Virus record (IMG/VR): IMGVR_UViG_3300033070_001565
Source: a virus
Taxonomy: Duplodnaviria > Heunggongvirae > Uroviricota > Caudoviricetes
DNA length: 64,000 nucleotides
Direction: 5' to 3' (one strand)
Part shown: positions 30,080 to 64,000 of the stretch, one piece after another
How the letters are laid out: each line of letters starts with the position of its first letter
How positions within the stretch are numbered: the first letter of the stretch is position 1
Notes under the pieces: generated by a model
What the model was told of the DNA's origin: nothing
Database searches by the model: none
The model's input: only the letters and a program-made list of their open reading frames with translations
Made by a program: the position numbers and the translations under genes

Positions 30080-30080
30080 A

Positions 30081-51728: not shown

Positions 51729-51776
51729 TTGATTCAAATCTATATTTGTTGTTGCGTGTTTTCAGCTAATTGATTT

Positions 51777-51977
51777 ATGAAGATCGAAAGGATACCAGTG
51801 AAGGGACCCCTGTCAAAGGGAACGCTCGCTGGTGTGAGAGCAGAGGCTGCCGGCAAGCCGTACGACAGATTCGGTGTTGTTCTCAGTGTAGAGAACGGCA
51901 GACTGTTTTTGATAACTGCAGCAGGACCAACGTGGTGGCCCTGGCGTATGTCCTACGTGGCTCTTGGCATGTCATAG
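51777..51977 (+). CDS. small ORF, possibly related to the microgene family
   Basis: ATG ORF of 66 aa. IPVKGPL...VVLSVENGRLFLI...WWPW resembles the family. Confidence 0.2.
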   Translation: MKIERIPVKGPLSKGTLAGVRAEAAGKPYDRFGVVLSVENGRLFLITAAGPTWWPWRMSYVALGMS

Positions 51978-52144
51978 TGCCACCGCGCGTACCTTCTGAT
52001 TGAACTAGCAGCCATCCATTTAGAAAATTCGTTGAAATGGGCGTCAATCCTACGAGTACGTTCGCAGACTGCAATTGCAATATACAAGTAATACGAATCG
52101 TCAAGACTGTCTGCAAAAAGAGTTCCCGGTGTTACGGCTTCCAC
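51953..52144 (-). CDS. microgene array member (MET-PG...WKP family), most downstream copy
   Basis: GTG-EAVTPGTLF. The junction GTGGAAGCCGTAA is shared with the upstream copy. Confidence 0.4.
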   Translation of the reverse strand: MEAVTPGTLFADSLDDSYYLYIAIAVCERTRRIDAHFNEFSKWMAASSIRRYARWHYDMPRAT

Positions 52145-52317
52145 AATACCTCGCGATTCATGAGATCAGCTCTTTCAAAGAACAATCCCATGTGAACGTA
52201 TCCATCGTTATCAATGATATACGTCCCTCTTATACAGCATGACACGATGATTCTTATCTTATCTCGATCGATTTGAGCTCTGTACACGCAGCCTGGAATG
52301 AGATCAGCTCGTTTCAC
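52132..52317 (-). CDS. microgene array member
   Basis: MKRADLIPGCVY...IRIIVSC...VLWKP*. Confidence 0.5.
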   Translation of the reverse strand: MKRADLIPGCVYRAQIDRDKIRIIVSCCIRGTYIIDNDGYVHMGLFFERADLMNREVLWKP

Positions 52318-52321
52318 AGGA

Positions 52322-52519
52322 TTAAGTACATTTCCACAGAGTTACTCGTTTATAGGCGCCGTTAGAGTCTATCGAATCTGGCGTACGGACGATCTTGCCA
52401 GCGATAAACACGTAACGAGTTCCGATTAGAACAGATATTGAACTGAGCATTTCCTCGTAAAAGAAATCAGCTCTCAGAGATCCTGATACATCACACTCTC
52501 GCGAATCTGATCGACTCAT
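52322..52519 (-). CDS. microgene array member
   Basis: ...VSGSL...ISVLIG...TLWKCT*. Confidence 0.4.
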   Translation of the reverse strand: MSRSDSRECDVSGSLRADFFYEEMLSSISVLIGTRYVFIAGKIVRTPDSIDSNGAYKRVTLWKCT

Positions 52520-52742
52520 GAGTGTATCTCAAGTTTCTTTTTGCAATTTTTGATCGTGCTGTGAGAGTTTTGCCATTCACACCTCTACCTGGGTAGTACA
52601 AAACGATCTGCACTGTTATTTGCGGGTCAACGGTTGGCCATACTTGAACTCTCAGATCTCCTACGCCTGGAGCAATATCAATCGCCTCCTCTGTGTGGGT
52701 TTTGAGAATTTGTTTCATTTCCTGAATTGCGATTTTTCTCAT
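52491..52742 (-). CDS. microgene array member (diverged)
   Basis: IAPGVGDLRVQVW...ITVQIVLY. Confidence 0.3.
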   Translation of the reverse strand: MRKIAIQEMKQILKTHTEEAIDIAPGVGDLRVQVWPTVDPQITVQIVLYYPGRGVNGKTLTARSKIAKRNLRYTHESIRFARV

Positions 52743-52972
52743 GCCGGCTCGATGTAATAGCAGTGTGGAGTCCTACGACACACGAGATACATTTTTGTTT
52801 CGCATACGATTCCCGTTGAGACGAGATGTATCAATTCTTCATTGTGAATTGAAAGTGTCACGCCCATGTAATACCTGATGAATCTGTCCCCTGGGCGCAG
52901 CGACTTTTCCTTGCTTACGAGAAGCGATCCATTTGGAATCTTGTTTGCAGAGAGTTCGTCAATGATGAGCAT
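52739..52972 (-). CDS. microgene array member
   Basis: KIPNGSLLV...VTLSIHN, with an ATGA junction. Confidence 0.4.
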   Translation of the reverse strand: MLIIDELSANKIPNGSLLVSKEKSLRPGDRFIRYYMGVTLSIHNEELIHLVSTGIVCETKMYLVCRRTPHCYYIEPA

Positions 52973-53225
52973 TCTTTTTTGGGTTCCAGATGAGCTTGTG
53001 TTGTGCTACATAGTAGATTCTTACTGGCAAAAAAACATAATTTTCGATTGCGTGCTGAGACAGGGTACGAATTTCACCCTCTTTGAAATTTACGCCAATA
53101 ATCGCAGAAACACGTAGTGATCTAACATGTTTGCAAACAGAGAGCTGGCCTGGCTGCGGTGTCGGAGTCCATTTCGGACGATCCTGTCTTACAGCACGAT
53201 CAAGATCTTCTACAATATCTCTCAT
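52959..53225 (-). CDS. microgene array member
   Basis: PQPGQLSV...LRVSAIIGV...LIWNP plus an extension. Confidence 0.4.
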   Translation of the reverse strand: MRDIVEDLDRAVRQDRPKWTPTPQPGQLSVCKHVRSLRVSAIIGVNFKEGEIRTLSQHAIENYVFLPVRIYYVAQHKLIWNPKKNAHH

Positions 53226-53452
53226 ATCTTTGGAGCAAAGATAACACGTGGCAAGCAGAATTGAGTTTGAAGCATGCTACCAATCTTCACTTCTGTGCTT
53301 GCGAGCTCAACGAGTCCTCCTTGCACAGTGATCTCGAGTCTCACGGAGTTGGCTCCTTGCTTGTAACCAGGCAGAAACTGGAGAAGCGACCCTGGCAGTG
53401 ACATGTCATGCATCTGAGTCAGAAATGACAATTTGGTATTCATCATAGCCAC
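53222..53452 (-). CDS. microgene array member
   Basis: MSLPGSLLQF...VRLEITVQ, with an ATGA junction. Confidence 0.4.
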   Translation of the reverse strand: MAMMNTKLSFLTQMHDMSLPGSLLQFLPGYKQGANSVRLEITVQGGLVELASTEVKIGSMLQTQFCLPRVIFAPKI

Positions 53453-53545
53453 CTGATGTTAGCTGTTTTACTGATGCAATGTCGTCATCAAGATCTACGT
53501 GCCAGCCTACGAGAATGTAAACATTTGCTACACCGTTATCGTGCG

Positions 53546-53770
53546 TTAGCCAACCGATGGTACCCGGTAGCTTAACTTGCATGTGTACAATACATTGGCA
53601 TCGCGCGAGATAATTCTATTTCTCAGTCCGTCTGAAGTCAGAGTAATAGTGTGCGCTTGTACACACTCTACAATACTAGAACTGATGATAATGTGGAGCA
53701 GACGATTAGTACTGGCCGGATGATATGCGTAACGTCTTATATTTCCTGGATGCATGTAGCTATTTTCCAT
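53546..53770 (-). CDS. microgene array member
   Basis: MENSYMHPGNIRRYAY...LLHIIISSS. Confidence 0.45.
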   Translation of the reverse strand: MENSYMHPGNIRRYAYHPASTNRLLHIIISSSIVECVQAHTITLTSDGLRNRIISRDANVLYTCKLSYRVPSVG

Positions 53771-53993
53771 TTGTCAGTTCCTCGAGCGTTGTGATACCTT
53801 TCTTCCACATTGAATATGATATTGAAAATCCGACAACGCCATGAACGTTCTGCAGAACAGTGACCCAGAAATCTTTCTTTTTGTGACGTTTTATAGCTAT
53901 GCACAGCATTGGCATACAAGAGTTGTTGATCTTGTTATAGCGCATAGCAAGTCTTAGCTGTCCAGTTACAGGCCCACGATATTTTGTTTGCAT
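53760..53993 (-). CDS. microgene array member
   Basis: GPVTGQLRLAM...MLCIAI...SMWKKG. Confidence 0.35.
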   Translation of the reverse strand: MQTKYRGPVTGQLRLAMRYNKINNSCMPMLCIAIKRHKKKDFWVTVLQNVHGVVGFSISYSMWKKGITTLEELTNGK

Positions 53994-54172
53994 ATCAGAG
54001 CTTTATGTTCGTACCAGGGAATCGAGAGATTTACATTTTTTGCAACACCTTCGGCTGACAGCATGTAAGCATCGAAAGATGTCTGCGATTTCTGTTTGCA
54101 CGATATGATAATGAACGGATACTTCGTAACGATCGCATATAGGCAGCCAGACTCAATTTTCATGGGTGTCAT
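53966..54172 (-). CDS. microgene array member
   Basis: MKIESGCLYAIVTKYPFIIISC...IPWYE. Confidence 0.4.
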   Translation of the reverse strand: MTPMKIESGCLYAIVTKYPFIIISCKQKSQTSFDAYMLSAEGVAKNVNLSIPWYEHKALICKQNIVGL

Positions 54173-54587
54173 GATTGAGTCTCTCCTCGACGAGGCGTAG
54201 ATGCTCAGATGGGAATGTCACATGAACTACTTGCTTGAAATCATCGTGAACAAGCTTCCACCGCCAGGCTTTGCTCTTTCGTGTTCCAAATCCTTGCATC
54301 CAATCTTTGACACGATCGGAATCAGAGTCTCTCTTCACAAGCTTGAGAAATTTTTGTGCTGATCGTGAGTCGGAGAATACGATCCAGATCCTGTCTCGGC
54401 ACGCCAGCGGCACTCGATGCTTGTGACTCACTCCGCAGATTCCTCCGCAGCTTCCCTGACAAGAATTACGGGTCGCACATCCCAGTTCGTTTAGTAGAAC
54501 AATGAGCTTCGATATTTTCTTATCGACACTCACGATCTGGCCACCGAGAGCGATCTTGTCTTTTCTGTGACGCTTCAATTGCACCAT
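54153..54587 (-). CDS. array-embedded larger Cys-rich ORF (144 aa)
   Basis: LGGQIVSV...CATRNSCQGSCGGIC...WRWKL. The N-terminal junction is ATGGTGCAATTGA. Confidence 0.35.
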   Translation of the reverse strand: MVQLKRHRKDKIALGGQIVSVDKKISKLIVLLNELGCATRNSCQGSCGGICGVSHKHRVPLACRDRIWIVFSDSRSAQKFLKLVKRDSDSDRVKDWMQGFGTRKSKAWRWKLVHDDFKQVVHVTFPSEHLRLVEERLNHDTHEN

Positions 54588-54757
54588 ACTTCTTCGAATC
54601 CAGTGAAATGGTGAGAAAATTCGATAAATTTCGGACCAGCCATAATTCGAAGTTGTTTTCCGTATGCTATGCTGATCACGATTAGAATTTGACGTTTGTG
54701 ACCGTTGAGGCCGGCTGTCACTTCAATGTTTCCCGGGGCCGGCGAGATCTTATTCAC
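54575..54757 (-). CDS. microgene array member
   Basis: MNKISPAPGNIEV...ILIVISIA...EEVWCN*. Confidence 0.5.
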   Translation of the reverse strand: MNKISPAPGNIEVTAGLNGHKRQILIVISIAYGKQLRIMAGPKFIEFSHHFTGFEEVWCN

Positions 54758-54930
54758 GATTTTACTTCTATGTAATGTTGCTTACGGCACCACAAGTCAC
54801 TGCTAAATCCAGCAGACGAGAGTCCCTGAAATGTGTACAAATACTGATTTATTGAGAAATTCAAATGTTTCTCAGCTAGCGCGATTCTTACGCACGTAAA
54901 CGTTTCTCCTTCAACATTCCTGACATAGAA

Positions 54931-55167
54931 TCATAATTTCATATTACACCGAGTTGAGCCTGGTTGCACCAACGTACGGAGTGATCGGAATTCTCGTGTT
55001 TCCCACCAAGTGTTGTTGCTAAATTCGGTGGAACCAATCCATGAGATTGTGTGATCGGGAGAGTACTCTGACATTCGACTTTTTTTATGACTTGTTATCG
55101 TTGAAAGAGTAATGAAATACCTATTGCCGATTTCAACAAGGCACCCTGGTACAGGATCACAGTTCAT
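54931..55167 (-). CDS. microgene array member
   Basis: MNCDPVPGCLVEI...FITLSTI...ISWIGS plus an extension. ATGA overlap with the upstream copy. Confidence 0.45.
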   Translation of the reverse strand: MNCDPVPGCLVEIGNRYFITLSTITSHKKSRMSEYSPDHTISWIGSTEFSNNTWWETREFRSLRTLVQPGSTRCNMKL

Positions 55168-55349
55168 TGTGGACTCCACAGAACATCACGTGCAGAGTTA
55201 CGGTACCTGTCATCTAGTCTCGTGCAAGTACCATTTGAAAATATTACAAGGTTGAGATGATTTTTTCTATGAATCGTAATATACGTTTGAGTCGTCCACC
55301 GACTTTCGTAGTGTATGATCGAACCTGGCAGAATATTCGTGTCAGACAT
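55164..55349 (-). CDS. microgene array member
   Basis: MSDTNILPGSIIHY...YITIH...VLWSPQ*. Confidence 0.5.
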   Translation of the reverse strand: MSDTNILPGSIIHYESRWTTQTYITIHRKNHLNLVIFSNGTCTRLDDRYRNSARDVLWSPQ

Positions 55350-55352
55350 ATC

Positions 55353-55553
55353 TTATGTGATACTATATTTTTTCACAGTGTCGTGAAATAGCGTCGTACG
55401 TCGAATCGTACCTTCAGAATGAAGAAAGATAAATTTTTTTCTTTTGTAGCCAGTAACATCTTCGCAACTCAATACCACTGAGAGTTTAAGTTCGTTTCCG
55501 GAAAATTCATTGTATAGAGATCCAATCGTCCCTAGAGGAATAAACGTGACCAT
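55353..55553 (-). CDS. microgene array member
   Basis: MVTFIPLGTIGSLY...LKLSVVLSC. Confidence 0.4.
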   Translation of the reverse strand: MVTFIPLGTIGSLYNEFSGNELKLSVVLSCEDVTGYKRKKFIFLHSEGTIRRTTLFHDTVKKYSIT

Positions 55554-55741
55554 ATCAATTCCTTTCTCATGCTCAGATGTGGAAAATCTGAGAACGAGTT
55601 ATCAATCCCGTGTGGTGTAATGTATTTTGATTGTGAATCTGTTGATGATAGAACGATTGCAAGAATTTCGAACGATTCATCTCCGCTGATCGCGCCAGCA
55701 AAGCAGATCGAATCTTTCATCAGTGCGCCTGGACGATTCAT
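55532..55741 (-). CDS. microgene array member
   Basis: MNRPGALM...FEILAIVLSS...ELIWSR. Confidence 0.45.
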   Translation of the reverse strand: MNRPGALMKDSICFAGAISGDESFEILAIVLSSTDSQSKYITPHGIDNSFSDFPHLSMRKELIWSRLFL

Positions 55742-55944
55742 ACGAGAATTTTCACTCCGCTTACATCACCTTTTAGACTGATTCTTTCGAATTTGTGAGA
55801 TTGCAGAAAGTAAAAATATCTGTAATCAGGATTATCAGACGGCGTGATTGCAACCGTCAACCAAAGATTTGCTGTCATTCCTTTGGATCGAACGTTTGAT
55901 TTGAAGATTATCACGCATCCCAACCCGAGCCCAAGAACACTCAT
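55738..55944 (-). CDS. microgene array member
   Basis: LGLGCVIIF...LWLTVAIT, with an ATGA junction. Confidence 0.4.
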   Translation of the reverse strand: MSVLGLGLGCVIIFKSNVRSKGMTANLWLTVAITPSDNPDYRYFYFLQSHKFERISLKGDVSGVKILV

Positions 55945-56147
55945 GTTACAGAATGGCTTGCAAAGCAGTCAAATTCATCATCGTCCATTCGTGATACCCT
56001 TACACGATGATTTCCACCGATCGTAACGATTTCGTAAATCTTCTCATCTTCGAGATAGACGAATGAAAGCAAGATTCTCGAGTAACAAGGATTATCTTGT
56101 TTGATGTCTCGATATGTGTAAAGCCGGCCGATCGTTACATCGCTCAA
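55941..56147 (-). CDS. microgene array member
   Basis: MSDVTIGRLYTY...ILLSFVYL...IVTIGG, with an ATGA junction. Confidence 0.4.
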   Translation of the reverse strand: MSDVTIGRLYTYRDIKQDNPCYSRILLSFVYLEDEKIYEIVTIGGNHRVRVSRMDDDEFDCFASHSVT

Positions 56148-56410
56148 TAGAGAATCTTTCTTCCGCCTCGCGGTCCAACTGCGTACAGGGATGTAGCGTA
56201 ATTCTCGACTCCTCCCAATCTCAAAAGCTTCTCTAGAATTGTTTTCATAAACTCCCGTGCTTCCGGCTCGCTATCGAATGAGTACTCACGTACGTTTTCA
56301 TCAGCGTTTGGATCGAGCCAATCATCGTGGTACGTACCGTCTGTCATCATGTCTGCAAATTCATCACGATTCTGGTACACGCCGACAATATACGATTTTA
56401 CATTCTTCAC
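56144..56410 (-). CDS. array-embedded acidic ORF (non-family, 88 aa, GTG start)
   Basis: Rich in D and E, with no PG or WKP motif. ATGA overlap with the downstream member. Confidence 0.35.
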   Translation of the reverse strand: MKNVKSYIVGVYQNRDEFADMMTDGTYHDDWLDPNADENVREYSFDSEPEAREFMKTILEKLLRLGGVENYATSLYAVGPRGGRKILY

Positions 56411-56450
56411 TTTTGAATTGTACGCTTTCGTGACAGTGATTACACGTCAG

Positions 56451-56609
56451 TTACATCACAAGTTTCGTGAGTCTGTTGTTAGTTCTGAGGCATAGGAAGT
56501 ATCGCACGCCGCTAATGTTAACACAAGATAGAACGATTGCGCTGTAAGAAATCTCAGCATGATAGTCGATTTCAATGATTTTGCCGGGCTCCATCACTAC
56601 ACGCTCCAT
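56451..56609 (-). CDS. microgene array member (52 aa, below the ORF-track cutoff)
   Basis: My translation gives MERVVMEPGKIIEIDYHAEISYSAIVLSCVNISGVRYFLCLRTNNRLTKLVM*. The upstream 13-nt junction is ATGGAGCGTGTAG. Confidence 0.45.
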   Translation of the reverse strand: MERVVMEPGKIIEIDYHAEISYSAIVLSCVNISGVRYFLCLRTNNRLTKLVM

Positions 56610-56794
56610 GTACACATTTTTGTATACTCTCGTTGCAAATCAAGAATGACCCCGCGGGCTGAAACTTTAAAACAACGTTTCCATGATCTTGGAGATCTGT
56701 AATCATTCACAGATATGATGACGTCAACATACGAACGTTTCTGTTCCTTCGAGAATGTTGACACCAGAATTCCCTGCACTGTCAGAGCTTCCAT
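56597..56794 (-). CDS. microgene array member
   Basis: MEALTVQGILVS...YVDVIISV...CTWSV*. Confidence 0.45.
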   Translation of the reverse strand: MEALTVQGILVSTFSKEQKRSYVDVIISVNDYRSPRSWKRCFKVSARGVILDLQREYTKMCTWSV

Positions 56795-57000
56795 TCTGCT
56801 GTTATCCCAAAGGGAAGTTTGAATTCGTAGGCGCTCAGAGCAATCGCTCTCTTTTGCATTCCGTGGTACGAAATATACTTGTAGTATCTGAATCGCTCGT
56901 CTGAGTCAGCTGACAAAACGATTGACAGTGAGAGAAAATTGTCATGTTCCTCTCGTGCAAAAGACACGATCGAACCCGGGTTACTCAAGCAGGAATCCAC
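56782..57000 (-). CDS. microgene array member
   Basis: MDSCLSNPGSIVSF...LSLSIVLSA...AEWKL*. Confidence 0.5.
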   Translation of the reverse strand: MDSCLSNPGSIVSFAREEHDNFLSLSIVLSADSDERFRYYKYISYHGMQKRAIALSAYEFKLPFGITAEWKL

Positions 57001-57215
57001 CGTGCTTCTATCGCCGATAGTTCGAATGAGTCATGAGGAAGTTCGCTCGGCTCTGATACGCCCTCAGGAAATGCCACAGAGATAATATCAAATTTGTCGC
57101 AAAACTTTACAGACACTACAATTCGAATCTGAGCTGAATTATCATGTGGGAGCAAGTCATAGCTATAGATCATCCCAGGACAAGATAGCTTTCTTTCGAA
57201 GTTCACGGTTTCCAT
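56985..57215 (-). CDS. microgene array member
   Basis: METVNFERKLSCPGMIYSY...IRIVVSV...ARWIPA*. Confidence 0.5.
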   Translation of the reverse strand: METVNFERKLSCPGMIYSYDLLPHDNSAQIRIVVSVKFCDKFDIISVAFPEGVSEPSELPHDSFELSAIEARWIPA

Positions 57216-57418
57216 ATCACACGCTGTCCTTCTAGCGCTTCAGTACTCCATCTGGATTGACTCAGCCTATGTGGGCCCAAAAATGTGAATATCGAAACGT
57301 TCCCTCTGTATGTATCCCTATTTTTCTTGTTCTGCACGACAACGTAAATGTGTATTTGAGATGTACCTGAACAGTTCGCAGATGTGAAATTGCTTATGAA
57401 CACCGTGCCAGGATTCAT
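57203..57418 (-). CDS. microgene array member
   Basis: MNPGTVFISNF...IHIYVVVQ...RVIWKP*. Confidence 0.5.
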   Translation of the reverse strand: MNPGTVFISNFTSANCSGTSQIHIYVVVQNKKNRDTYRGNVSIFTFLGPHRLSQSRWSTEALEGQRVIWKP

Positions 57419-58277: not shown

Positions 58278-58430
58278 ACAGATTTCATTTGAATTTTAAT
58301 AAATTCACCTTGCACTGAGAAAATCTTTGATCCTGAGCCTATGACTGAATATTCCATTTTTGCTGCGATAGAACGAAATACATCATTGCAGAAGTTCCAA
58401 GGTAATCTTTGATGCAGATCAGATCTCCGC

Positions 58431-58637
58431 TCATTGACATTCTGAATTCCACACTTCTTCGAAGAACACGCTCATTGATAGATCAGAAAACCAGCCCAAC
58501 GACTTCCCGTTCAATACGACTTGAGTAATCGGACCATTTGAAATGTACTTTGCGATTACAATTCTGAAATCTTTTTTGTGATCGCCAGAAGCAATACTTC
58601 CGGGTGCATAGTTCACACTGTCCACACGACCTCCCAC
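58431..58637 (-). CDS. microgene array member
   Basis: MGGRVDSVNYAPGSIA...FRIVIAKY...EEVWNSECQ*. Confidence 0.5.
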   Translation of the reverse strand: MGGRVDSVNYAPGSIASGDHKKDFRIVIAKYISNGPITQVVLNGKSLGWFSDLSMSVFFEEVWNSECQ

Positions 58638-58843
58638 TTGTCCGTAACGTACGCTACTGAAATTCTCTTCTCAAATCCGTTTACCTGAAGAATTCCAACG
58701 TACGCTCGTTCGAATCTTGAGATGATAATGACAGGGTAACCGTAATCGCTTGAACTCATATCGAAGTGTGTTATGAGATCTCCCGGTTTGGGATCACTGC
58801 ACGTAGTCACTTGTCGTGCTCCAAAAAGTTTCATGTTTGGCAT
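58613..58843 (-). CDS. microgene array member
   Basis: KPGDLITHF...YPVIIISR...KWEVVWTV*. Confidence 0.45.
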   Translation of the reverse strand: MPNMKLFGARQVTTCSDPKPGDLITHFDMSSSDYGYPVIIISRFERAYVGILQVNGFEKRISVAYVTDKWEVVWTV

Positions 58844-58951
58844 CGATGAGCAACTCAGTTACAATTCTGTGAACTGTTTTCGATGTGAGTGTGTTTTCGG
58901 TCCGCATTGAGCGAGATCGAAATATAGAAAAGATTGCCAGTGTAATTCATA

Positions 58952-59176
58952 TCACCCGGGATGTGCTGAGGCTTCTTCAACTGACCACTCCAGCAGATTG
59001 TAACGAGAGTATATGGACCCTGTACCAACAGTCGTCCCTCGTACAGAGAGAATCATGTACTTGTTCTCGTATCGACCAAGTGCAATGTACAGTCTTTTAC
59101 CCACGCTGGTCTCAGTTGAGAGCACGATTCCGGGTATCACGCTGATGTATATACCGCTATTAGAATAGTCTGACAA
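58952..59176 (-). CDS. microgene array member (TTG/GTG start)
   Basis: VIPGIVLST...RLYIALG...LLEWSV. Confidence 0.4.
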   Translation of the reverse strand: MSDYSNSGIYISVIPGIVLSTETSVGKRLYIALGRYENKYMILSVRGTTVGTGSIYSRYNLLEWSVEEASAHPG

Positions 59177-59333
59177 TCTCGGCCCCCGCGCTTTTCATGT
59201 TCTCTCTCCAAGCAAAACTGTGCAAAAATATACCATTCGTATAAAGAAATTTATTTTCTCCAATGTGAATGTGAATCGTTCTGCTTGCTCTAATCTTTGT
59301 GTGCTCGAGTGTCCCAGGCTCGTCGTCTTGCAT
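59160..59333 (-). CDS. microgene array member (57 aa, missing from the ORF track)
   Basis: My translation gives MQDDEPGTLEH...TIHIHIGE...FAWREN...LF*. Confidence 0.4.
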   Translation of the reverse strand: MQDDEPGTLEHTKIRASRTIHIHIGENKFLYTNGIFLHSFAWRENMKSAGAEIVRLF

Positions 59334-59376
59334 GCTGATTCGATAAAATGTACGTTTTACTACCGTTGATTACACA

Positions 59377-59562
59377 TCATCGTGGCTGCCAAATCGCAAT
59401 TGCAGCAATTTTTTCTGTTAGCGATCGAGCGATGTGTCCGCGTTCGTGGAGACTCAGAAATGAACTGTCATTGCGCAAATACTGATTCGATAGTGCAACG
59501 TGCAAGATTCCTGATTCGAAAAATTTGAAAATCTGTCCTGGCGGGATTCTAATGGAGTCCAT
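59377..59562 (-). CDS. microgene array member
   Basis: MDSIRIPPGQIFKF...ILHVALS...AIWQPR*. Confidence 0.5.
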   Translation of the reverse strand: MDSIRIPPGQIFKFFESGILHVALSNQYLRNDSSFLSLHERGHIARSLTEKIAAIAIWQPR

Positions 59563-59744
59563 AGCGCTCCCTCACTAATCATGTAAGATTTTCTGAGATC
59601 TATTTTAGAGACGCCATCATATGAAATCAATCTCAGTGTGCTCCACTCTTTCTGCTCTGAATCTCGGCAAGATATCACCAGTCGTATTCGACAACCTGCG
59701 AATGAGAATGCGACTCCCGGTACGAATGACTTAACGGTTTCCAC
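59454..59744 (-). CDS. microgene array member with read-through (stop TGA to TTA)
   Basis: VETVKSFVPGVAFSF...IRLVISC...ALWTP-L, then an extension. Confidence 0.45.
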   Translation of the reverse strand: METVKSFVPGVAFSFAGCRIRLVISCRDSEQKEWSTLRLISYDGVSKIDLRKSYMISEGALWTPLESRQDRFSNFSNQESCTLHYRISICAMTVHF

Positions 59745-59944
59745 TGCACTCCTGCACCCGCGGCCGGCGCGTAATCGAACCCAATCCCGATGTCTTCGAT
59801 TCTGAATACAGACACAGAGAAAACACGATTCATGTTATTATTCTCGTCTCTGATGACCGCAAGAATCGCGTAAAGAGTACCGTGTTTTCTGAATGTGAAG
59901 ACTCCTCCTGGGACGAGATCAGCTTTCACTATTTGCATCTCCAC
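59675..59944 (-). CDS. microgene array member with read-through
   Basis: (VE)MQIVKADLVPGGVFTF...LYAILAV...VQWKP-L, then an extension. Confidence 0.45.
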   Translation of the reverse strand: MEMQIVKADLVPGGVFTFRKHGTLYAILAVIRDENNNMNRVFSVSVFRIEDIGIGFDYAPAAGAGVQWKPLSHSYRESHSHSQVVEYDW

Positions 59945-60180
59945 AAGAGATTTTCATTTTCATTTTCACTGTCATTGTCAGTAGAATCGTGTTTTACGTG
60001 CCATATCTTCATGCCAGTATACGAGATCATTGTCTTTTTGAGGAGATCATCCCACCGATCATGTACACGTACTGCTATTGATACGAATAGCGAGTCTCCG
60101 AGAGACACGATATCGCCTGGAATATGACGTACGTTAACGGAATCCAAGATATCTCTCCACTGTCTGAGAGTCGTCTCCAC
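59929..60180 (-). CDS. microgene array member (TTG start at the junction; N-terminally fused frame)
   Basis: ...LDSVNVRHIPGDIVSL...VSIAVRV...LLWRCK*. Confidence 0.4.
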   Translation of the reverse strand: METTLRQWRDILDSVNVRHIPGDIVSLGDSLFVSIAVRVHDRWDDLLKKTMISYTGMKIWHVKHDSTDNDSENENENLLWRCK

Positions 60181-60359
60181 AGTTTACGTGTTATTCCGTT
60201 AGACTGCAGACGTAGTACTGAATCTATCATTCTGTTCGGATCTCTTGTCGATATCCTGCAAGGAGATAGAGTGATGTAACAGCTGGTCACTCTACAATCG
60301 TGCGTGACAAAATAAATGCCACCGTGAATTGTGTCGAATCTATCGCTCATGGTGACCAT
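60075..60359 (-). CDS. microgene array member with read-through
   Basis: MVTMSDRFDTIHGGIYFV...EISWIP-L, then an extension. Confidence 0.45.
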   Translation of the reverse strand: MVTMSDRFDTIHGGIYFVTHDCRVTSCYITLSPCRISTRDPNRMIDSVLRLQSNGITRKLWRRLSDSGEISWIPLTYVIFQAISCLSETRYSYQ

Positions 60360-60538
60360 GAAACGTCATCATCGCAGATCATTCCCTCTTTTCCTTCGTA
60401 AACGCTACGATTGCTAATTCTCACGAAATTTTGCTCTCCACGTTGCGCTACGAGAATGTGTGCAGAGAACACGACGTCTCCGGCCAGCAAGAACCGAATT
60501 GTGCCAGATACTCTCTTGTGGTGCTTCAAGGTTTCCAT
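60347..60538 (-). CDS. microgene array member
   Basis: METLKHHKRVSGTIRF...VSWSP*. The junction ATGGAAACCTTGA was verified. Confidence 0.55.
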   Translation of the reverse strand: METLKHHKRVSGTIRFLLAGDVVFSAHILVAQRGEQNFVRISNRSVYEGKEGMICDDDVSWSP

Positions 60539-60717
60539 ATTGCTTGCGGTACTCTATTCGTCGTTATGCGTTTCTTGATACCACAGCTGTACAGCACGAG
60601 TACGATGTTGTTGCTCGCCAGCCCTGTGAACGCATCCAGAGATCTTCCGATAGATATCGAACACACTCCGTTTGCGTTTTCAAAAAGACACCCTGGAATC
60701 TTGTTAACGAGTTCCAT
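60526..60717 (-). CDS. microgene array member
   Basis: MELVNKIPGCLF...VCSISIG...AIWKP*. Confidence 0.55.
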   Translation of the reverse strand: MELVNKIPGCLFENANGVCSISIGRSLDAFTGLASNNIVLVLYSCGIKKRITTNRVPQAIWKP

Positions 60718-60902
60718 TTGTAGCGACTGATGTGCAATTTCTTTTGCATCTCTCTATCGTAGAACCCATGTACTGTACCGAAGCTCCACAATCTCATGCA
60801 ATGCGTGTACCCTTCCTCGATTCCACCAGATAGAAAAAGTACAACATATGGGTGATTCTCCCAAGTTACGAGTTCTCCAGGAGTAAGATCTGCGGATTCC
60901 AC
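60564..60902 (-). CDS. microgene array member with read-through
   Basis: MESADLTPGELVTW...YVVLFLSG...RYKWNS-L, then an extension. Confidence 0.45.
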   Translation of the reverse strand: MESADLTPGELVTWENHPYVVLFLSGGIEEGYTHCMRLWSFGTVHGFYDREMQKKLHISRYKWNSLTRFQGVFLKTQTECVRYLSEDLWMRSQGWRATTSYSCCTAVVSRNA

Positions 60903-61093
60903 ACGATATCCTTTTGCATCTCGTGATACACATAAGACTTTCGAACTCTAAGTTGCTCGCCAAGCCTAAAATGAGAGCCGACATACAGTGATTGTAGGTG
61001 ACCGTGACCGAATACGATGTAAAGCGCAGTTGATCGATCGTTTCTTCGGCCATAACTGTAAATGCTTCCTGATATCATCGTTACTGACTCCAT
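60866..61093 (-). CDS. microgene array member with read-through
   Basis: MESVTMISGSIYSY...ALYIVFG...IVWNP, then an extension. Confidence 0.45.
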   Translation of the reverse strand: MESVTMISGSIYSYGRRNDRSTALYIVFGHGHLQSLYVGSHFRLGEQLRVRKSYVYHEMQKDIVWNPQILLLENS

Positions 61094-61269
61094 TTGATGA
61101 AATTCTTCTCTTCAGACGCCCATATCATGTACAGATGCGCAGCTCTCGAATTTAGTGTGAGAGATGGTTTGCCCGATGAGACTCTCGAGATGATAACGTA
61201 AGGGTACGTTGAGCAATCAACAGTGAAGCCAGCGTGAGAAATCAAGCAACCAGGAGTAATGATCTCCAT
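61081..61269 (-). CDS. microgene array member
   Basis: MEIITPGCLISH...YVIISRV...IKWSQ*. Confidence 0.5.
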   Translation of the reverse strand: MEIITPGCLISHAGFTVDCSTYPYVIISRVSSGKPSLTLNSRAAHLYMIWASEEKNFIKWSQ

Positions 61270-61311
61270 TCGTTCTAATATCATCATACAAAATTTGTGA
61301 AATCTATACAA

Positions 61312-61494
61312 TCACGCGTGTGTCCATATCATTCCATCTTTGCTAGCCCATCTGAGACCACATACACCACTTTTCGTTAGTTGACGAACTGTCTGAGTGA
61401 ACTTTCCATATGAAACGAAGATCGGAATGTACACGAAGCAAGATCCGTTAAACTTTTTAACTGAATGAAGACACCCTGGCGTAACGGTTCCCAT
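61312..61494 (-). CDS. microgene array member
   Basis: MGTVTPGCLHSV...FVYIPIFV...MIWTHA*. Confidence 0.5.
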   Translation of the reverse strand: MGTVTPGCLHSVKKFNGSCFVYIPIFVSYGKFTQTVRQLTKSGVCGLRWASKDGMIWTHA

Positions 61495-61676
61495 TCGTTC
61501 ACCGCGTCGTCATCGTCCCACACTGATTCTTCTTGTATCGTACCATCAGAGAGCGTGAACAGCGCAGATGCAATACTGAGATGCGAAGATGATATCACGA
61601 CCCTTAGCCACAGTGTTCCTCTGGGCCGGTAGCAGACACCACTCAAGATCGCTCCTACTTTCACTGTGAGCTCCAT
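61377..61676 (-). CDS. microgene array member with read-through
   Basis: MELTVKVGAILSGVCY...LRVVISS...NEWEP-L, then an extension. Confidence 0.45.
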   Translation of the reverse strand: MELTVKVGAILSGVCYRPRGTLWLRVVISSSHLSIASALFTLSDGTIQEESVWDDDDAVNEWEPLRQGVFIQLKSLTDLASCTFRSSFHMESSLRQFVN

Positions 61677-61915
61677 ATTTCATCACCGTGGATGAGAACG
61701 CATATGTGAACCCCAGTATGATCGAGTTTGTATCTCAACTGAAATCTCATCGCTTCGTACACTTCATTTTTTACGTAAGAAATACAAATCTGTACGTGAG
61801 AAGAATTTTCGCCGAGTATTGAATACATGCATCCGGGAATTATCTTTTCCATAGTCTTATGTCGTACTTCGTAACCTTTCACCCGCCCGGGCTGGTACAT
61901 AAATTTGGTACCCAC
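61661..61915 (-). CDS. microgene array member (two N-terminal modules: MGTKFMYQPG and MEKIIPGCMY)
   Basis: ...VQICISYV...EIWSSQ*. Confidence 0.45.
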   Translation of the reverse strand: MGTKFMYQPGRVKGYEVRHKTMEKIIPGCMYSILGENSSHVQICISYVKNEVYEAMRFQLRYKLDHTGVHICVLIHGDEIWSSQ

Positions 61916-62252
61916 AGGACTGGATCGTCTTTGGGATCGAATCTGATGCAGTGACGATAACCCACCGATGTGATTCGATTCTCGGATTCAAAAGCAATCT
62001 GAATCGACATACGAACAATTCCGTTTTGATCTGTTCTCGGACGGATATTTCGGAGCGTGCCAGACGTAATTGCTGTTCCCAAAGTATCCACGGTTCAATC
62101 AGCTCCCTGTCCCATGATTCGATCTCGTTTACACCACGATGAGTGAGAATGGCTGTATTTTCTTTTTGCTTCCATGAGATTGTCACATTCACCGCAGCAG
62201 AACACTCCGTGAGTTCGAACGATACAAGCATACCTGGAGTTACGGTTTCCAT
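61857..62252 (-). CDS. microgene array member with long read-through
   Basis: METVTPGMLVSF...AAVNVTIS...PWILWEQQ, then an extension. Confidence 0.45.
   Translation of the reverse strand: METVTPGMLVSFELTECSAAVNVTISWKQKENTAILTHRGVNEIESWDRELIEPWILWEQQLRLARSEISVREQIKTELFVCRFRLLLNPRIESHRWVIVTASDSIPKTIQSCGYQIYVPARAGERLRSTT
61879..62091 (-). CDS. microgene array member (GTG start)
   Basis: VDTLGTAITSGTL...IVRMSIQIA...VLWVP, then an extension. Confidence 0.4.
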   Translation of the reverse strand: MDTLGTAITSGTLRNIRPRTDQNGIVRMSIQIAFESENRITSVGYRHCIRFDPKDDPVLWVPNLCTSPGG

Positions 62253-62422
62253 GCAATGATCTTTCCGTCGATCACCACGTAAGCATCGATTGTACCGATT
62301 CTGTATTTCGAAAGAGTCGTGACATCGTTAAACTGATGAGCATGTTTCAGCACAAAGCAGAGATGTCGCTTGCCTTGAAAGCTAGAGAAACATAGGAGAC
62401 TTCCGGGTGGAACTGGATTCAT
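62240..62422 (-). CDS. microgene array member
   Basis: MNPVPPGSLLCF...HLCFVLK...IIAWKP*. Confidence 0.55.
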   Translation of the reverse strand: MNPVPPGSLLCFSSFQGKRHLCFVLKHAHQFNDVTTLSKYRIGTIDAYVVIDGKIIAWKP

Positions 62423-62610
62423 GATCCCTTTGGACAGTACAAGATACACTCTTTGTAACCTTGCGTCCACGAGTGAAAACCGACAGAGCACAGTCTTACG
62501 GATACATTTTTTACAATGCTCTTGTGCTGTACAAGTATTGTTAGCTTTGCGCATTTATCGTGCTTGATGTTGACCCTTGCGATAATCGATCCTGGCAACA
62601 CACTTTTCAT
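62419..62610 (-). CDS. microgene array member
   Basis: (ME)MKSVLPGSIIAR...KLTILVQ. The ATGA overlap was verified at 62607-62610. Confidence 0.55.
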   Translation of the reverse strand: MKSVLPGSIIARVNIKHDKCAKLTILVQHKSIVKNVSVRLCSVGFHSWTQGYKECILYCPKGS

Positions 62611-62798
62611 TTCCATATAACTTTATCTCCTTTTGCAAATGTCCACGTGAAAATTCCAACCTGTGAGATTCCCACGTACCGAAACGTATTTTCACTCTCA
62701 CGTGAGATGTACAGTTCAACGTTGCTGATATTTGCTCTCAAATTAGAATTGTTGTACAGAGATATCAGCGAGCCTGAAAGGAATGCGTTATCACTCAT
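62607..62798 (-). CDS. microgene array member
   Basis: MSDNAFLSGSLISL...VELYISR...KVIWK*. Confidence 0.5.
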   Translation of the reverse strand: MSDNAFLSGSLISLYNNSNLRANISNVELYISRESENTFRYVGISQVGIFTWTFAKGDKVIWK

Positions 62799-62961
62799 CT
62801 TGAGCACTCCAAACGATTCGATCGCTATCACTGCAAATCCATGTACGAACTTGCCCCCGCACGAAGTATTTGTAGTCTCCGAGATACAATACGGGTACTT
62901 CGTGACTCATGAACCACGGACACACGAGAGCTCCTGACGTTGGAAATTTTACGGTTTCCAC
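62791..62961 (-). CDS. microgene array member (GTG start)
   Basis: VETVKFPTSGALVC...PVLYLGD...IVWSAQDE*. Confidence 0.45.
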   Translation of the reverse strand: METVKFPTSGALVCPWFMSHEVPVLYLGDYKYFVRGQVRTWICSDSDRIVWSAQDE

Positions 62962-62966
62962 ATGAC

Positions 62967-63131
62967 TCAATCGTTCTCCCACAGTATCCATTGTTCGATT
63001 CCCTCTGACGAAATACACGTAAATTTGAAGCGCTTCCCAGCTTTAAATTCTGAGAGATATATGCAAGCTTTTGCTTGATTTTCTATATCTGTGACTGCTT
63101 CGAACAGCATACCTGGTACGCAGCCTTTCAT
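62967..63131 (-). CDS. microgene array member
   Basis: MKGCVPGMLFEAV...ACIYLSE...WILWEND*. A remnant MWKP* follows immediately. Confidence 0.4.
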   Translation of the reverse strand: MKGCVPGMLFEAVTDIENQAKACIYLSEFKAGKRFKFTCISSEGIEQWILWEND

Positions 63132-63147
63132 CTGATGAGGTGCTATT

Positions 63148-63327
63148 TTAGCCACTCTGCGACCTCCATATGGCCCGTACGGGCATCTTTGATGACCAGA
63201 TGCCAACTCCTCCGACGCTAATGCACAGTGTACCAGAACTCAACCTGGGTGTCAGAAATATGAGCAGTTTTCCATTAAAATCAGCCCATACGGCCGGTGG
63301 AGAAATGGAAAAAAGACCTCCGATCAT
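63148..63327 (-). CDS. microgene array member
   Basis: MIGGLFSISPP...LLIFLTP...AIWRSQSG*, with an ATGA junction. Confidence 0.5.
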   Translation of the reverse strand: MIGGLFSISPPAVWADFNGKLLIFLTPRLSSGTLCISVGGVGIWSSKMPVRAIWRSQSG

Positions 63328-63551
63328 GGTTTCCACAGTGCACCTCTCATTCCAATCTGTCTGTGATGCCATGTGTAGCACCCATCCCAAGAGAGTCTCA
63401 AGTCTCCTCCCTCCCATCCTGAAAGTACAATCACGAGAAAGATCTTACCTATTCTTTCTTTTACGGGAGAAGAAGAAACGAGACACCCTGGAATATCGTA
63501 AACTGAACGGTTGTTCATCTTTATCTCCCCAGAGCAGACCAAGATCTCCAA
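63324..63551 (-). CDS. microgene array member
   Basis: ...SVYDIPGCLVSS...IFLVIVLS...ALWKP*. Confidence 0.5.
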   Translation of the reverse strand: MEILVCSGEIKMNNRSVYDIPGCLVSSSPVKERIGKIFLVIVLSGWEGGDLRLSWDGCYTWHHRQIGMRGALWKP

Positions 63552-63744
63552 TTGTCCTGTTGTACCATAGCTGCATACATCTTGTATGAAGTCTCAGATC
63601 GCCAATTATCTCGCTACCTGGAATACTCTTAGGACCAAGCACAATCGCTAGCACCGGTGCTCCTTGCGATTCGCTGTACCAAGAAATAGAGATCAGATTT
63701 CCAGGAATATCATACACAGACGGTCCGATCACGTGGCTCGCCAT
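63445..63744 (-). CDS. microgene array member with read-through
   Basis: MASHVIGPSVYDIPGNLISI...VLAIVLG...LLWG, then an extension. Confidence 0.4.
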   Translation of the reverse strand: MASHVIGPSVYDIPGNLISISWYSESQGAPVLAIVLGPKSIPGSEIIGDLRLHTRCMQLWYNRTIGDLGLLWGDKDEQPFSLRYSRVSRFFFSRKRKNR

Positions 63745-63926
63745 AGTACCCTCTCCAGAACGCTTTTCCCATAGATGTATGACACACCCTTTACTGAAAT
63801 CCTGTAATGTGCGTCAGATGCCCAGATGGGAGAAGATGAGATGACAACCGAGAGCTCGATCTTCTTTCTATTGCCTATATGTTTGAACTCAAGCAGTATC
63901 ACGCTTCCAGGAGTCATGTTTCCCAT
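63729..63926 (-). CDS. microgene array member
   Basis: MGNMTPGSVILLEF...ELSVVISS...VLWRAT*. Confidence 0.5.
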   Translation of the reverse strand: MGNMTPGSVILLEFKHIGNRKKIELSVVISSSPIWASDAHYRISVKGVSYIYGKSVLERVLWRAT

Positions 63927-64000
63927 ACGATCATCTGAGTTTTATCTGAAAATGTTCCTATTCCAACTCTTCTATACGTGAGCATGGTATGCTCGTACCA
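63914..64000 (-). CDS. microgene array member, 5'-partial (continues beyond the window)
   Basis: Open frame from the window edge. ...VGIGTF...MIVWET* with the junction ATGGGAAACATGA into the next copy. Confidence 0.35.
   Translation of the reverse strand, partial: WYEHTMLTYRRVGIGTFSDKTQMIVWET

Follow-up and report, generated by a model that had tools for sequence, protein, structure and literature searches.

On the minus strand of the 64,000-nucleotide stretch of DNA analysed here (the window; IMG/VR virus record IMGVR_UViG_3300033070_001565), positions 51953-63926 are tiled by 62 consecutive small ORFs (u1-u62; Table 1) whose starts lie 193 nt apart on average. The family architecture is common to 60 of them; the other two, u42 and u51, are unrelated inserts. 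The analysis confirms the position, the strand and the very large head-to-tail family of genes for ~60-aa proteins in the original prediction, as well as its statement that the array runs off the end of the window: in locus L015, which is 99.9% identical to the window end, the array goes on for at least 2.6 kb past position 64000. Copy number amounts to about 72 microgenes in the window's strain and about 90 in the sister strain L008, where the array spans ~17.7 kb. At the other end, u61 and u62 lie directly upstream, in transcription order, of the gene for an Rnl2-type RNA ligase, which in all related loci delimits the array on its downstream side (annotated there as PF09414 in L006-L012). 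The neighbours are the RNA ligase, a helicase, GroEL and DnaE, a setting of replication, nucleotide-metabolism and RNA-repair genes. Because we saw no genes for virion components in the window, we call the source a phage on the strength of its replication and nucleotide-metabolism genes with PHROG matches.

Table 1. Array units, example features and downstream flank, with positions in the window, decoys (of 724) outscoring each unit in the leave-one-out test, and dN/dS.
Feature	Span	Strand	Units or description	Decoys outscoring unit	dN/dS
Array portion within the window	51953-64000	-	From ORF list, tiling with junction distances, codon-phased substitutions, leave-one-out profile test, continuation in L015 and L008		
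u1-u9	62240-63926	-	63729-63926, 63445-63744, 63324-63518, 63148-63336, 62967-63131, 62791-62961, 62607-62798, 62419-62616, 62240-62422	0 (u1, u2, u3, u5, u7, u8, u9); 4 (u4); 18 (u6)	
u10-u20	60075-62252	-	61857-62252, 61879-62091, 61661-61852, 61377-61676, 61312-61494, 61081-61269, 60866-61093, 60564-60902, 60526-60717, 60347-60538, 60075-60359	mostly 0-3; 18-22 (u17, u19, u20)	0.06-0.36 in each unit with an alignment (vs L011)
Example read-through tail	61857-62072	-	the stop at the junction is lost in u10, which reads on for 71 codons into u11		
u21-u32	58074-60180	-	59929-60180, 59675-59944, 59454-59744, 59377-59562, 59160-59333, 58952-59176, 58855-59028, 58613-58843, 58431-58625, 58339-58452, 58262-58357, 58074-58277	49 (u27)	0.11-0.39; 0.84 (u30)
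u33-u41	56451-58089	-	57910-58089, 57740-57922, 57570-57767, 57415-57624, 57203-57418, 56985-57215, 56782-57000, 56597-56794, 56451-56609	0-3; 98 (u36)	0.07-0.25
Example canonical 13-nt junction	57203-57215	-	ATGGAAACCGTGA; ATG GAA ACC GTG = M-E-T-V of u38; one base on, TGG AAA CCG TGA = W-K-P-stop of u37		
u42	56144-56410	-	88-aa acidic ORF, non-family insert	512	
u43-u50	54575-56147	-	55941-56147, 55738-55944, 55532-55741, 55353-55553, 55164-55349, 54931-55179, 54754-54915 (start codon uncertain), 54575-54757	mostly 0-5; 38 (u44); 22 (u49)	0.21-0.43
u51	54153-54587	-	144-aa Cys-rich ORF, non-family insert	329	
u52-u57	52959-54172	-	53966-54172, 53760-53993, 53546-53770, 53406-53582, 53222-53413, 52959-53225	0-1 (u52-u56); 12 (u57)	0.10-0.24; 0.98 (u54)
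u58-u60	52322-52972	-	52739-52972, 52491-52742, 52322-52519; small conserved ORFs in the chain, family membership without sequence support	100, 619, 133	0.12, 0.07, 0.12
u61, u62	51953-52317	-	52132-52317, 51953-52144; last two clear family members	0, 0	0.18, 0.08
Rnl2-type RNA ligase	50688-51737	-	phrog_548 at 3.8e-39; same strand as the array		0.06

Paralogy was assessed by a leave-one-out profile test against 724 decoys, in which at most 5 higher-scoring decoys correspond to an empirical p<0.01 and at most 25 to p<0.035. Among the 60 units, 31 beat all decoys, 45 had at most 5 decoys above them and 53 at most 25, so that the profile self-similarity on which the original prediction hinged is supported for 45 to 53 of the 60. 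Judged by strict statistics, its count of at least 55 copies is therefore a little high for the window but holds for the whole locus: a profile built from the 45 best units matched, at E<0.01, 55 ORFs in L008, 39 in L011 and 11 in L015, on the array strand only, and nothing outside the array on either strand of the rest of the window. Seven family-like ORFs could not be distinguished from decoys (u27, u31, u36, u44, u58, u59 and u60). The C-terminal Trp is absent from u27, and u31 is shortened to 31 aa (as is u30, to 37 aa); u58-u60 are nonetheless under strong purifying selection. As for the two inserts, u42 has no PHROG match, is present in L008 and is absent from L011 and L012, while u51 has no Pfam or PHROG match and is likewise absent from L011 and L012, which have about 225 nt in place of about 714 nt of the window.

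Common to the family members are a Pro-Gly turn ahead of strand 1, a second strand with an alternating hydrophobic pattern (hhIVhS), a turn at Gly and, in the final strand, a Trp; PG occurs in the first 30 residues of 40 of the 60 units (18 more have an xG variant) and Trp within the last 10 residues of 41. Outside these features, loops and surface residues vary freely. AlphaFold models of u14 (pLDDT 80.7) and u39 (pLDDT 71.3) are both six-stranded, and each gene is predicted to encode a ~60-residue all-beta protein of the SH3/Tudor-like type. We found no homologues of the family in Pfam, PHROGs or BFVD, and an exhaustive profile search of 1.84 billion protein representatives returned only same-clade orthologues and repetitive false positives; none of these searches revealed homology to characterised anti-defence or takeover proteins. 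Paralogues are 12-30% identical, no DNA-level tandem repeats were found in the array, and unit order is colinear between strains; hence, the copies are old and maintained. We conclude that the region is a lineage-specific expansion in an uncultured large phage, one unbroken same-strand chain of 60 to 90 overlapping protein-coding microgenes that are diverged copies of a previously unseen protein with a predicted beta-barrel fold. The anatomy of the array as a whole, i.e. the expansion, coding units, fold type, purifying selection and unit turnover, we regard as practically certain.

Neighbouring genes overlap at 51 of the 61 junctions and are separated by a gap at the other 10. Overlaps of 13 nt (12 junctions), 16 nt (7) and 4 nt (ATGA; 8) recur, and in the canonical string, [AG]TGGAAACCGT[AG]A, the start of the next gene overlaps the Trp codon and stop of the preceding one, as in the junction GTGGAAGCCGTAA shared by u61 and u62. 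The next start codon overlaps the TGG in 31 of the 41 units with a terminal Trp. Thus, M-E-T(V) and W-K-P-stop, described in the original prediction as the N- and C-terminal ends of the proteins, are not two independent protein motifs but the same nucleotides read in two frames; nor are the boundaries rigidly conserved as had been claimed, since the canonical 13-nt overlap occurs at 12 junctions only and the information content of the motif is modest. This junction motif (families D1 and D8) was the only recurrent DNA repeat recovered. All ORFs but u49 (61 of 62) begin with ATG, GTG or TTG. Given the near-absence of gaps, and with neither promoter-like sites (23 vs 25.5 expected) nor terminator-like sites (5 vs 9.1 expected) enriched in the array, the units would be co-transcribed as a single operon. 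Shine-Dalgarno motifs are rare throughout the window, and translation would proceed by coupling, the next start lying inside or against the end of the preceding gene at the overlapping junctions, most often within the canonical string.

To measure selection, we used loci L011 and L012, whose DNA is ~80% identical to the window; u1-u9 fall outside this set, there being no L011 alignment, and their orthologues in L008 are 75-100% identical in amino acid sequence. Mismatches fall on the third codon positions of exactly the annotated array frames, for which pooled dN/dS is 0.19 compared with 1.15 and 1.57 for the two shifted frames and with 0.06 for the RNA ligase as control. Of 45 testable units, 43 have a dN/dS of 0.06-0.43; the values of u30 and u54 are higher (Table 1), and the L011 counterpart of u54 is merely 31% identical. 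On the plus strand, just 14 ORFs over the array reach 55 aa or more, with a pooled dN/dS of 0.54 and 10 stop codons in orthologous sequence, so that the antisense strand does not have the better coding statistics that, according to the original prediction, would have refuted it. The proposal of a diversifying family is not supported either; orthologous units are under purifying selection.

Between strains, units are colinear at 54-93% amino acid identity, while the number of units differs: L008 has an extra ~1.7 kb and, in addition, a unit of ~200 nt that the window lacks, between its positions 54003 and 54004. Seven units are "hot" between near-identical strains, with 10-25% nucleotide divergence and a dS of 0.26-0.75 on a background that is mostly 1-3% divergent; the hot alleles relative to L008 include u37, u43 and u50. 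Because dS is raised along with dN, this indicates imported alleles rather than positive selection in place. We conclude that each unit is individually kept by purifying selection in an order conserved between strains and that the array changes by gaining and losing whole units and by exchanging individual ones for divergent alleles.

Several known systems resemble the array in part. The T5 pre-early region, the SPO1 host-takeover module and the T4 early small ORFs comprise dozens of short, tightly packed same-strand genes beside replication genes, presumably co-transcribed and acting on host proteins; the packing and setting are the same here, but those genes are mostly unrelated and their early expression is demonstrated, whereas the array is one paralogous family. 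Integron cassette arrays are also long, same-oriented series of small, mostly promoterless ORFs that turn over by cassette gain, loss and replacement. Their cassettes are unrelated genes, while the array units are paralogues, no integron integrase is present and the overlapping junctions leave no room for attC-like repeats, which are absent between units. Polyimmunity loci of bacterial polymorphic toxin systems, which Zhang, Iyer and Aravind (in 2011) and Zhang et al. (in 2012) are said to have described, with related domains reportedly recruited by DNA viruses, likewise encode numerous small paralogous binding proteins in tandem, each presumed to neutralise a partner of its own; the present array is far longer, its genes overlap, no toxin gene is adjacent, and no unit matched SUKH or any other Pfam immunity family. 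The MGF families of ASFV are tandem paralogue arrays in a large eukaryotic DNA virus. Poxvirus K3L arrays are described as gene "accordions" (PMC6115191). Like the array, these are viral tandem paralogue arrays of strain-variable copy number shaped by recombination, with a link to host range or immune evasion that is putative in the case of the array; the viruses differ in having larger proteins and a eukaryotic host, and the accordion copies are recent and near-identical while those of the array are old. Closest in size is the lineage-specific zinc-ribbon expansion of Bacillus phage G, termed "unprecedented" at ~35 copies and suggested to encode specific transcription factors or DNA-binding proteins (Iyer, Anantharaman, Krishnan, Burroughs and Aravind 2021, PMC7824862). 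There, too, a very small single-domain protein has multiplied within one large phage genome; the array differs in its predicted beta-barrel, in its 60 copies in the window and about 90 in L008, and in its unbroken, overlapping head-to-tail chain, and we found no sequence relationship between the two families. At about twice the largest gene-family expansion that we found reported for any phage, the array is, as originally predicted, beyond ordinary phage clusters.

What the proteins do can be addressed only with caution. The most likely role, which we favour tentatively and at less than even confidence, would be that of small binding modules expressed together, a battery directed at host takeover or anti-defence. 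Each product would be specialised for a target of its own among the macromolecules of the host (or of a competitor), and encounters with many host variants would be what keeps the repertoire in the genome. In large lytic phages, clusters of numerous small genes on one strand, such as the T4, T5 and SPO1 early regions, typically have such early functions, and in large eukaryotic DNA viruses tandem paralogue families act in host range and immune evasion. The varied surfaces of the units (pI 4.1-10.3, differing loop lengths) and their exchange and turnover one unit at a time (hot alleles, extra units in L008, inserts absent from L011) also argue for a binding battery. An arms-race repertoire might, on the other hand, be predicted to evolve more adaptively than the purifying selection on orthologues indicates, although allele swapping could take the place of such change.

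It is less probable that the units are nucleic-acid- or RNA-polymerase-binding regulators (Tudor/KOW/Sm-like barrels) that target transcription, RNA or DNA of the phage itself, e.g. as specific transcription factors or chromatin-like proteins. The genes around the array and the roles proposed for the phage G zinc ribbons (PMC7824862) are consistent with this; however, with a median pI of 7.8 and 12 acidic units the family lacks a uniform nucleic-acid-binding character, and no known RNA- or DNA-binding motif is conserved in its alignment. Still more doubtful is a place in the virion as decoration, internal or ejected proteins, or tail or baseplate accessory modules. Near-equal co-translation from a coupled operon would suit assembly, and small beta-barrel, Ig-like and SH3-like modules are common in phage virions; yet a repeated structural role needs no 60-90 distinct, individually conserved paralogues so diverged from one another, the genes nearby include none for capsid, portal, terminase or tail, and close strains gain, lose and swap units. 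Decoration is the least likely of the three functions that the original prediction had named, the others being host takeover and anti-defence.

We also considered that programmed -1 frameshifting might join units into multi-domain "beads on a string" proteins, the microgenes not being true products, as could be suspected from the regular -1 offset of the 13- and 16-nt overlaps and from the loss of the junction stop in seven units (u10 and, like it, u2, u13, u17, u20, u22 and u23). The read-through tails evolve neutrally: in the six aligned to L011/L012 (u2 has no alignment), pooled dN/dS is 1.05 in the tail frame vs 0.21 in the frame of the downstream unit, and four of the six have a stop in the tail frame of orthologous sequence. 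Moreover, read in the zero frame, the canonical junction (TGG AAA CCG TGA) offers no slippery heptamer of the form X XXY YYZ, the sequence around the junction has little information content, the plain ATGA overlaps and the gapped junctions do not fit, and nearly every unit has its own start codon, making this explanation very improbable. Slighter still is the chance that there is no protein family at all but a regulatory, packaging-related or structured-RNA repeat, a decaying functionless duplication with incidental ORFs, or plus-strand coding: the junction motif as sole recurrent DNA string and the units that are truncated (u30, u31) or lack a valid start (u49) or a stop codon might suggest it, and it is contradicted by the codon-phased substitutions and dN/dS in the annotated frames, by unit order conserved at ~80% DNA identity, by searches that found no tandem DNA repeat, Rfam match or tRNA in the array, and by plus-strand ORFs that are few, do not tile the region and meet stops in orthologous sequence.

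ORFs of 50-100 codons are densely packed on the minus strand of the window between 51 and 64 kb, and the sign of the GC skew flips at ~48 kb, consistent with a switch of gene strand (coordinates are collected in the table). We tiled the array by hand from stop-to-stop segments and then set the coordinates by script, which gave 62 consecutive ORFs (u1-u62, numbered from the window end downward) arranged head to tail along a single strand; on average, successive starts are 193 nt apart. The start codons are ATG in 41 ORFs, GTG in 16, TTG in four and uncertain in one, and 51 of the 61 junctions overlap.

Coordinates of the array and of associated features
Sequence	Feature	Position	Strand	Remark
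Window	Microgene array	51953-64000	-	Continues past window end
Window	Tiled ORFs u1-u62	63926 down to 51953	-
Window	Stub directly upstream of u12	61853-61915	-	21 codons
Window	Insert u42	56144-56410	-	88 aa, acidic
Window	Segment missing from L007	54723-54795		73 nt
Window	Insert u51	54153-54587	-	144 aa, Cys-rich
Window	Extra unit in L008	54003/54004		~200 nt
Window	Segment between last unit and RNA ligase	51740-51952	-
Window	Rnl2-type RNA ligase gene	50688-51737	-	Downstream end of array in every related locus
Window	ORF adjoining RNA ligase	49766-50809	-	347 aa
Window	Change of GC-skew sign	~48 kb
Window	Second tandem paralogue array	25612-30773	+	Eight adjacent ORFs of ~205-250 aa
L008	Array	17-17720		~17.7 kb
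L015	Two closely similar units	1-860

To assess the coding status of these ORFs, we took advantage of the same locus in other samples, obtained by a profile search of a large protein collection and contig look-ups. At the DNA level, these loci are identical or nearly identical to the window (L006 and L007), ~95-97% identical (L008-L010) or ~78-84% identical (L011-L014). Mismatches relative to L011 and L012 concentrate on third codon positions, and the frames concerned are exactly those of the tiling, while ORFs in overlapping alternative frames have a shifted mismatch pattern, and in a sliding-window analysis the frame call switches frame in blocks of ~180-210 nt. Nei-Gojobori estimates, when pooled, give a dN/dS of 0.19 for the annotated frames versus 1.15 and 1.57 for the two shifted frames; individually, 43 of the 45 testable units have values of 0.06-0.43, the exceptions being u54 (0.98) and the truncated u30 (0.84). 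The flanking RNA ligase gene, which served as a control, has a dN/dS of 0.06. Judged by these substitution patterns, the units are real coding genes under a constraint approximately three times weaker than that on the ligase. The original prediction had placed the microgenes on the minus strand, and the plus strand does not have better coding statistics: plus-strand ORFs that reach 55 aa number only 14 in the array and fail to tile it. Pooled, they have a dN/dS of 0.54, where a value below 1 is expected because third positions are common to the sense frame and one of the antisense frames, and they are interrupted by 10 stops in orthologous sequence. Standard gene callers recover the array only partly (~35 of ~62 ORFs were called in L006), and the locus is, whatever its function, a clean example of ~60 overlapping microgenes that such callers partly miss.

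We then asked how many of these ORFs belong to one family. A profile built from a 14-sequence seed recruited four non-seed ORFs with E<0.01, all of them on the minus strand and within the array. In a leave-one-out HMM test, each ORF in turn was left out of the profile and then scored against it, with 724 decoys for comparison; 414 of these were ORFs of comparable length lying elsewhere in the window, and 310 were shuffled units. Thirty-one units scored above all decoys, 45 had at most five decoys above them (empirical p<0.01), and 53 had at most 25 (p<0.035). Seven ORFs (u27, u31, u36, u44, u58, u59, and u60) have the general layout, yet are indistinguishable from decoys in this test; all alignable members of this set are under purifying selection. 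The inserts u42 and u51 are clearly unrelated to the family. Thus, coding sequences under selection, mutual similarity in 45-53 units, and the head-to-tail order on one strand bear out the proposal of a tandem paralogous family of microgenes. In the alignment, the start codon is followed by 2-25 variable residues, a Pro-Gly (40 of the 60 units with family architecture) or an xG variant (18 of 60), and x-L/I; next come an alternating-hydrophobic strand (hhIVhS) and a hairpin in which a Gly is conserved, and the unit closes with a variable segment and h-h-Trp near the end. The paralogues share 12-30% identity, TRF detected no unit-length period in the array, and a DNA repeat search returned only junction fragments of 20-29 nt. 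Because paralogues this divergent occur without a unit-length DNA repeat, we conclude that they are old, diverged copies, and we rejected recent gene amplification ('accordion'), given that near-identical tandem DNA copies are absent.

The original prediction also described two conserved protein termini with rigid boundaries. When every [AGT]TGG[AG] site was printed in both reading frames, it turned out that W-K-P-stop, which recurs at the C-terminus, and M-E-T-V, which recurs at the N-terminus, are the same nucleotides: in ATGGAAACCGTGA, the downstream gene reads ATG GAA ACC GTG and the upstream gene, one base later, TGG AAA CCG TGA. The two termini are, therefore, one DNA motif in two frames, and the array is an example of how such a motif can resemble a pair of conserved protein termini. 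The motif has modest information content past the start codon, and the canonical 13-nt overlap (-13) occurs at only 12 junctions, while the -16 class occurs seven times and plain ATGA (-4) eight times. The terminal TGG is overlapped by the next start codon in 31 of the 41 units that have a Trp within the last ten residues and is free of overlap in the other 10, suggesting that the C-terminal Trp is probably a real structural residue and that its apparent rigidity owes much to the overlap.

Our working hypothesis for expression is that the units would form a single operon in transcription, with their translation coupled by termination and reinitiation. The corresponding features are present in that starts overlap or abut the preceding stops, and neither promoter-like sites (23 versus 25.5 expected from shuffled sequence) nor terminator-like sites (5 versus 9.1 expected) are enriched in the array. 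A candidate upstream motif, ATTTGCCACAT, was not enriched either. Shine-Dalgarno motifs are rare in the whole window, even upstream of large well-supported genes; their absence at the junctions is, therefore, not special to the array, and their rarity hints at a host with SD-independent initiation. Two small features accompany the tiled ORFs. A stub, VGTKFMYQPGRVKGYEVRHKT, in frame with u12 (MEKIIPG...) resembles the N-terminus of another unit and may be the remnant of a deletion or fusion between units. The segment between the last unit and the RNA ligase has 0, 4, and 13 mismatches by codon position in one minus-strand frame and is without a convincing start codon; it may be a further small gene or a degraded unit.

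The array extends beyond the window. L015, which is 99.9% identical to the window end, continues it by at least 2.6 kb with approximately ten more units, a non-coding spacer of ~230 nt with hairpins (for example GGGAGGGA…TCCCTCCC), and two closely related units up to the contig start. A recent duplication seems to have given rise to these two units (…GGLYEGIRSSRGSVHLYI… and …GSLYEYTRSSRGSVHIYI…). We also searched the sister strain L008 with a profile built from the 45 best window units: 55 ORFs of its array match at E<0.01, and the number rises to 68 when the threshold is relaxed to E<1, at which the opposite strand yields a single match. At the stricter level, all profile matches in L008, L011, and L015 are on the array strand. 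L015 and L008 start within 20 nt of each other upstream of the paired units, while L009-L011 and L013 start elsewhere inside the array; strain heterogeneity, a repeat or a genome end could be the cause. Exact-pattern scans of metagenome and viral collections returned no further upstream sequence or complete genome.

Unit order is colinear across strains, and variation occurs at the level of single units. Relative to the window, L008 carries an extra ~1.7 kb and an extra unit, and u21, u37, and u54 are only ~31-34% identical to their L011 counterparts. The inserts u42 and u51 are present in the window and L008 lineages and absent from the L011/L012 lineage and, therefore, look like strain-specific insertions; the 144-aa insert had no match in PHROGs and Pfam and the 88-aa insert none in PHROGs. 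L007 is 99.99% identical to the window except for one missing segment, across which a 210-aa gene is called that may be a fusion of u50 with the 144-aa ORF. Most of the background diverges by 1-3% when the window is compared with L008, while seven units (u1, u16, u17, u37, u43, u50, and u59) diverge by 10-25%. Because dS is raised in these units (0.26-0.75) along with dN, and their dN/dS is 0.31 versus 0.28 in the background, we favor unit-scale recombination with other alleles and rejected positive selection in place. Together with the pooled dN/dS of 0.19, this leaves the original interpretation standing as to a real, large tandem microgene family, but neither as to rigid protein termini nor as to diversifying selection in place.

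Next, we searched for relatives. No DNA match among 50,697 phage records was obtained by megablast with the array and 25 kb of its flank as queries, and the best protein identities to cultured phages were at most ~30% for DnaE and ~34% for the RNA ligase. Ten representative units had no Pfam match above the cut-off, and 59 alignment members searched against PHROGs gave one weak match (phrog_10625, E 2.3e-4); with 59 queries, this match lacks significance, and we rejected it as a multiple-testing artefact. By these tests, the array is not a member of any known protein family. A word-indexed search matched eight proteins, all same-clade orthologues. An exhaustive profile search of 1.84 billion representatives gave 13 matches, nine of which are small same-clade orthologues of window units; the other four are long proteins of repetitive sequence, in which the score adds up from one repeat to the next, and we rejected them as false positives. 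No profile match or comparable array was found in the more distant loci that share GroEL or the RNA ligase (L001-L005 and L017-L020, with L018 inspected directly). As far as these tools can see, the family appears confined to the phage clade of the window; because true members score only 5-25 bits, remote relatives would be undetectable in databases of such size. An integron cassette array was rejected as an explanation because attC-like inter-unit repeats are lacking and the junctions overlap; in the test for an integrase near the array, the 347-aa ORF matched only a transposase-annotated PHROG and not Pfam.

The closest described case that we found in the literature is the zinc-ribbon expansion of ~35 copies in Bacillus phage G, termed 'unprecedented' by Iyer et al. 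among 224 jumbo phages (PMC7824862). The array differs in having another predicted fold, approximately twice the copy number, and the form of a single overlapping head-to-tail chain. Among the lineage-specific expansions of large phages that we found in the literature, the largest copy number was ~35 (PMC7824862), which the array approximately doubles. In kind, it is a further case of the lineage-specific expansions and multigene families of large viruses.

We predicted the structure of two units with AlphaFold2 on paralogue alignments. The models of u14 (pLDDT 80.7) and u39 (pLDDT 71.3) both have six strands and no helices. From these predictions, the units would be compact five- or six-stranded all-beta barrels of ~60 residues in the SH3/Tudor/KOW-like class, so that the SH3- or KOW-like small beta fold originally expected holds as a fold class only. 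The BFVD structure library contained no significant match to the units. The conserved residues would form the structural core; variation is found in the loops, in length, and in charge (pI 4.1-10.3), a combination to be expected of a common scaffold that carries many binding specificities.

The anatomy of the array is solid and unusual; the phage is uncultured, and any function of the units is putative. Large lytic phages have early blocks of small genes, and other viruses have multigene families; by analogy with both, we tentatively suggest a battery of host-directed binders, for takeover or anti-defence, as the most likely role; no homology of the units to characterised anti-defence or host-takeover proteins was detected in Pfam, PHROGs, BFVD, and the exhaustive profile search. 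The fuller version, in which 70-90 individually conserved miniature beta-barrel binders in one translationally coupled chain would be reshuffled unit by unit between strains and serve as a broad-spectrum counter-defence or host-range library, is more doubtful. If true, such a library would be to bacterial viruses what multigene families are to the large DNA viruses of eukaryotes and, to our knowledge, the largest tandem paralogue expansion in any phage. If the units are host-directed binders, phages too, and not just giant eukaryotic viruses, could build and maintain large families of tiny binders, and the array would provide dozens of natural ~60-residue scaffolds with different specificities and a route to the host targets and defence systems of an uncultured host-phage pair.

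Among the alternatives, nucleic-acid- or RNA-polymerase-binding regulators seem unlikely to us. A role as virion components is distinctly less plausible; no virion gene lies within the window, so that even the term 'phage' is inferred. It is very improbable that the units are frameshift-fused polyproteins. Seven units (u2, u10, u13, u17, u20, u22, and u23) have lost the junction stop, and their tails run 19-71 codons into the next gene; for the six tails alignable to L011/L012, the pooled dN/dS is 1.05 in the tail frame versus 0.21 for the same DNA in the frame of the downstream unit, and the tail frame of four of the six is interrupted by a stop in orthologous sequence. The read-through tails are thus incidental, and we rejected them as functional extensions given their neutral evolution. 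Least probable of all is a non-coding element or artefact, which stands against the third-position pattern in the tiled frames; the array had no Rfam match and the 64-kb window contains no tRNA genes.

The rest of the window resembles the part of a large uncultured phage genome that is devoted to replication and nucleotide metabolism: its PHROG matches comprise a DnaE-type polymerase, a helicase, a clamp-loader-like ATPase, GroEL, thymidylate synthase, an endonuclease, and the Rnl2-type RNA ligase. The 347-aa ORF adjoining the ligase matches phrog_10081 (annotated transposase; E 7e-15) without a Pfam match, and a mobile-element gene adjoining the array could be relevant to its dynamics. A second tandem array of paralogues lies on the plus strand; three of its members had no match when searched in Pfam. 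Its ORFs share 28-47% mutual identity (BLASTP E 1e-9 to 1e-72), and the phage of the window seems prone to tandem family expansion.
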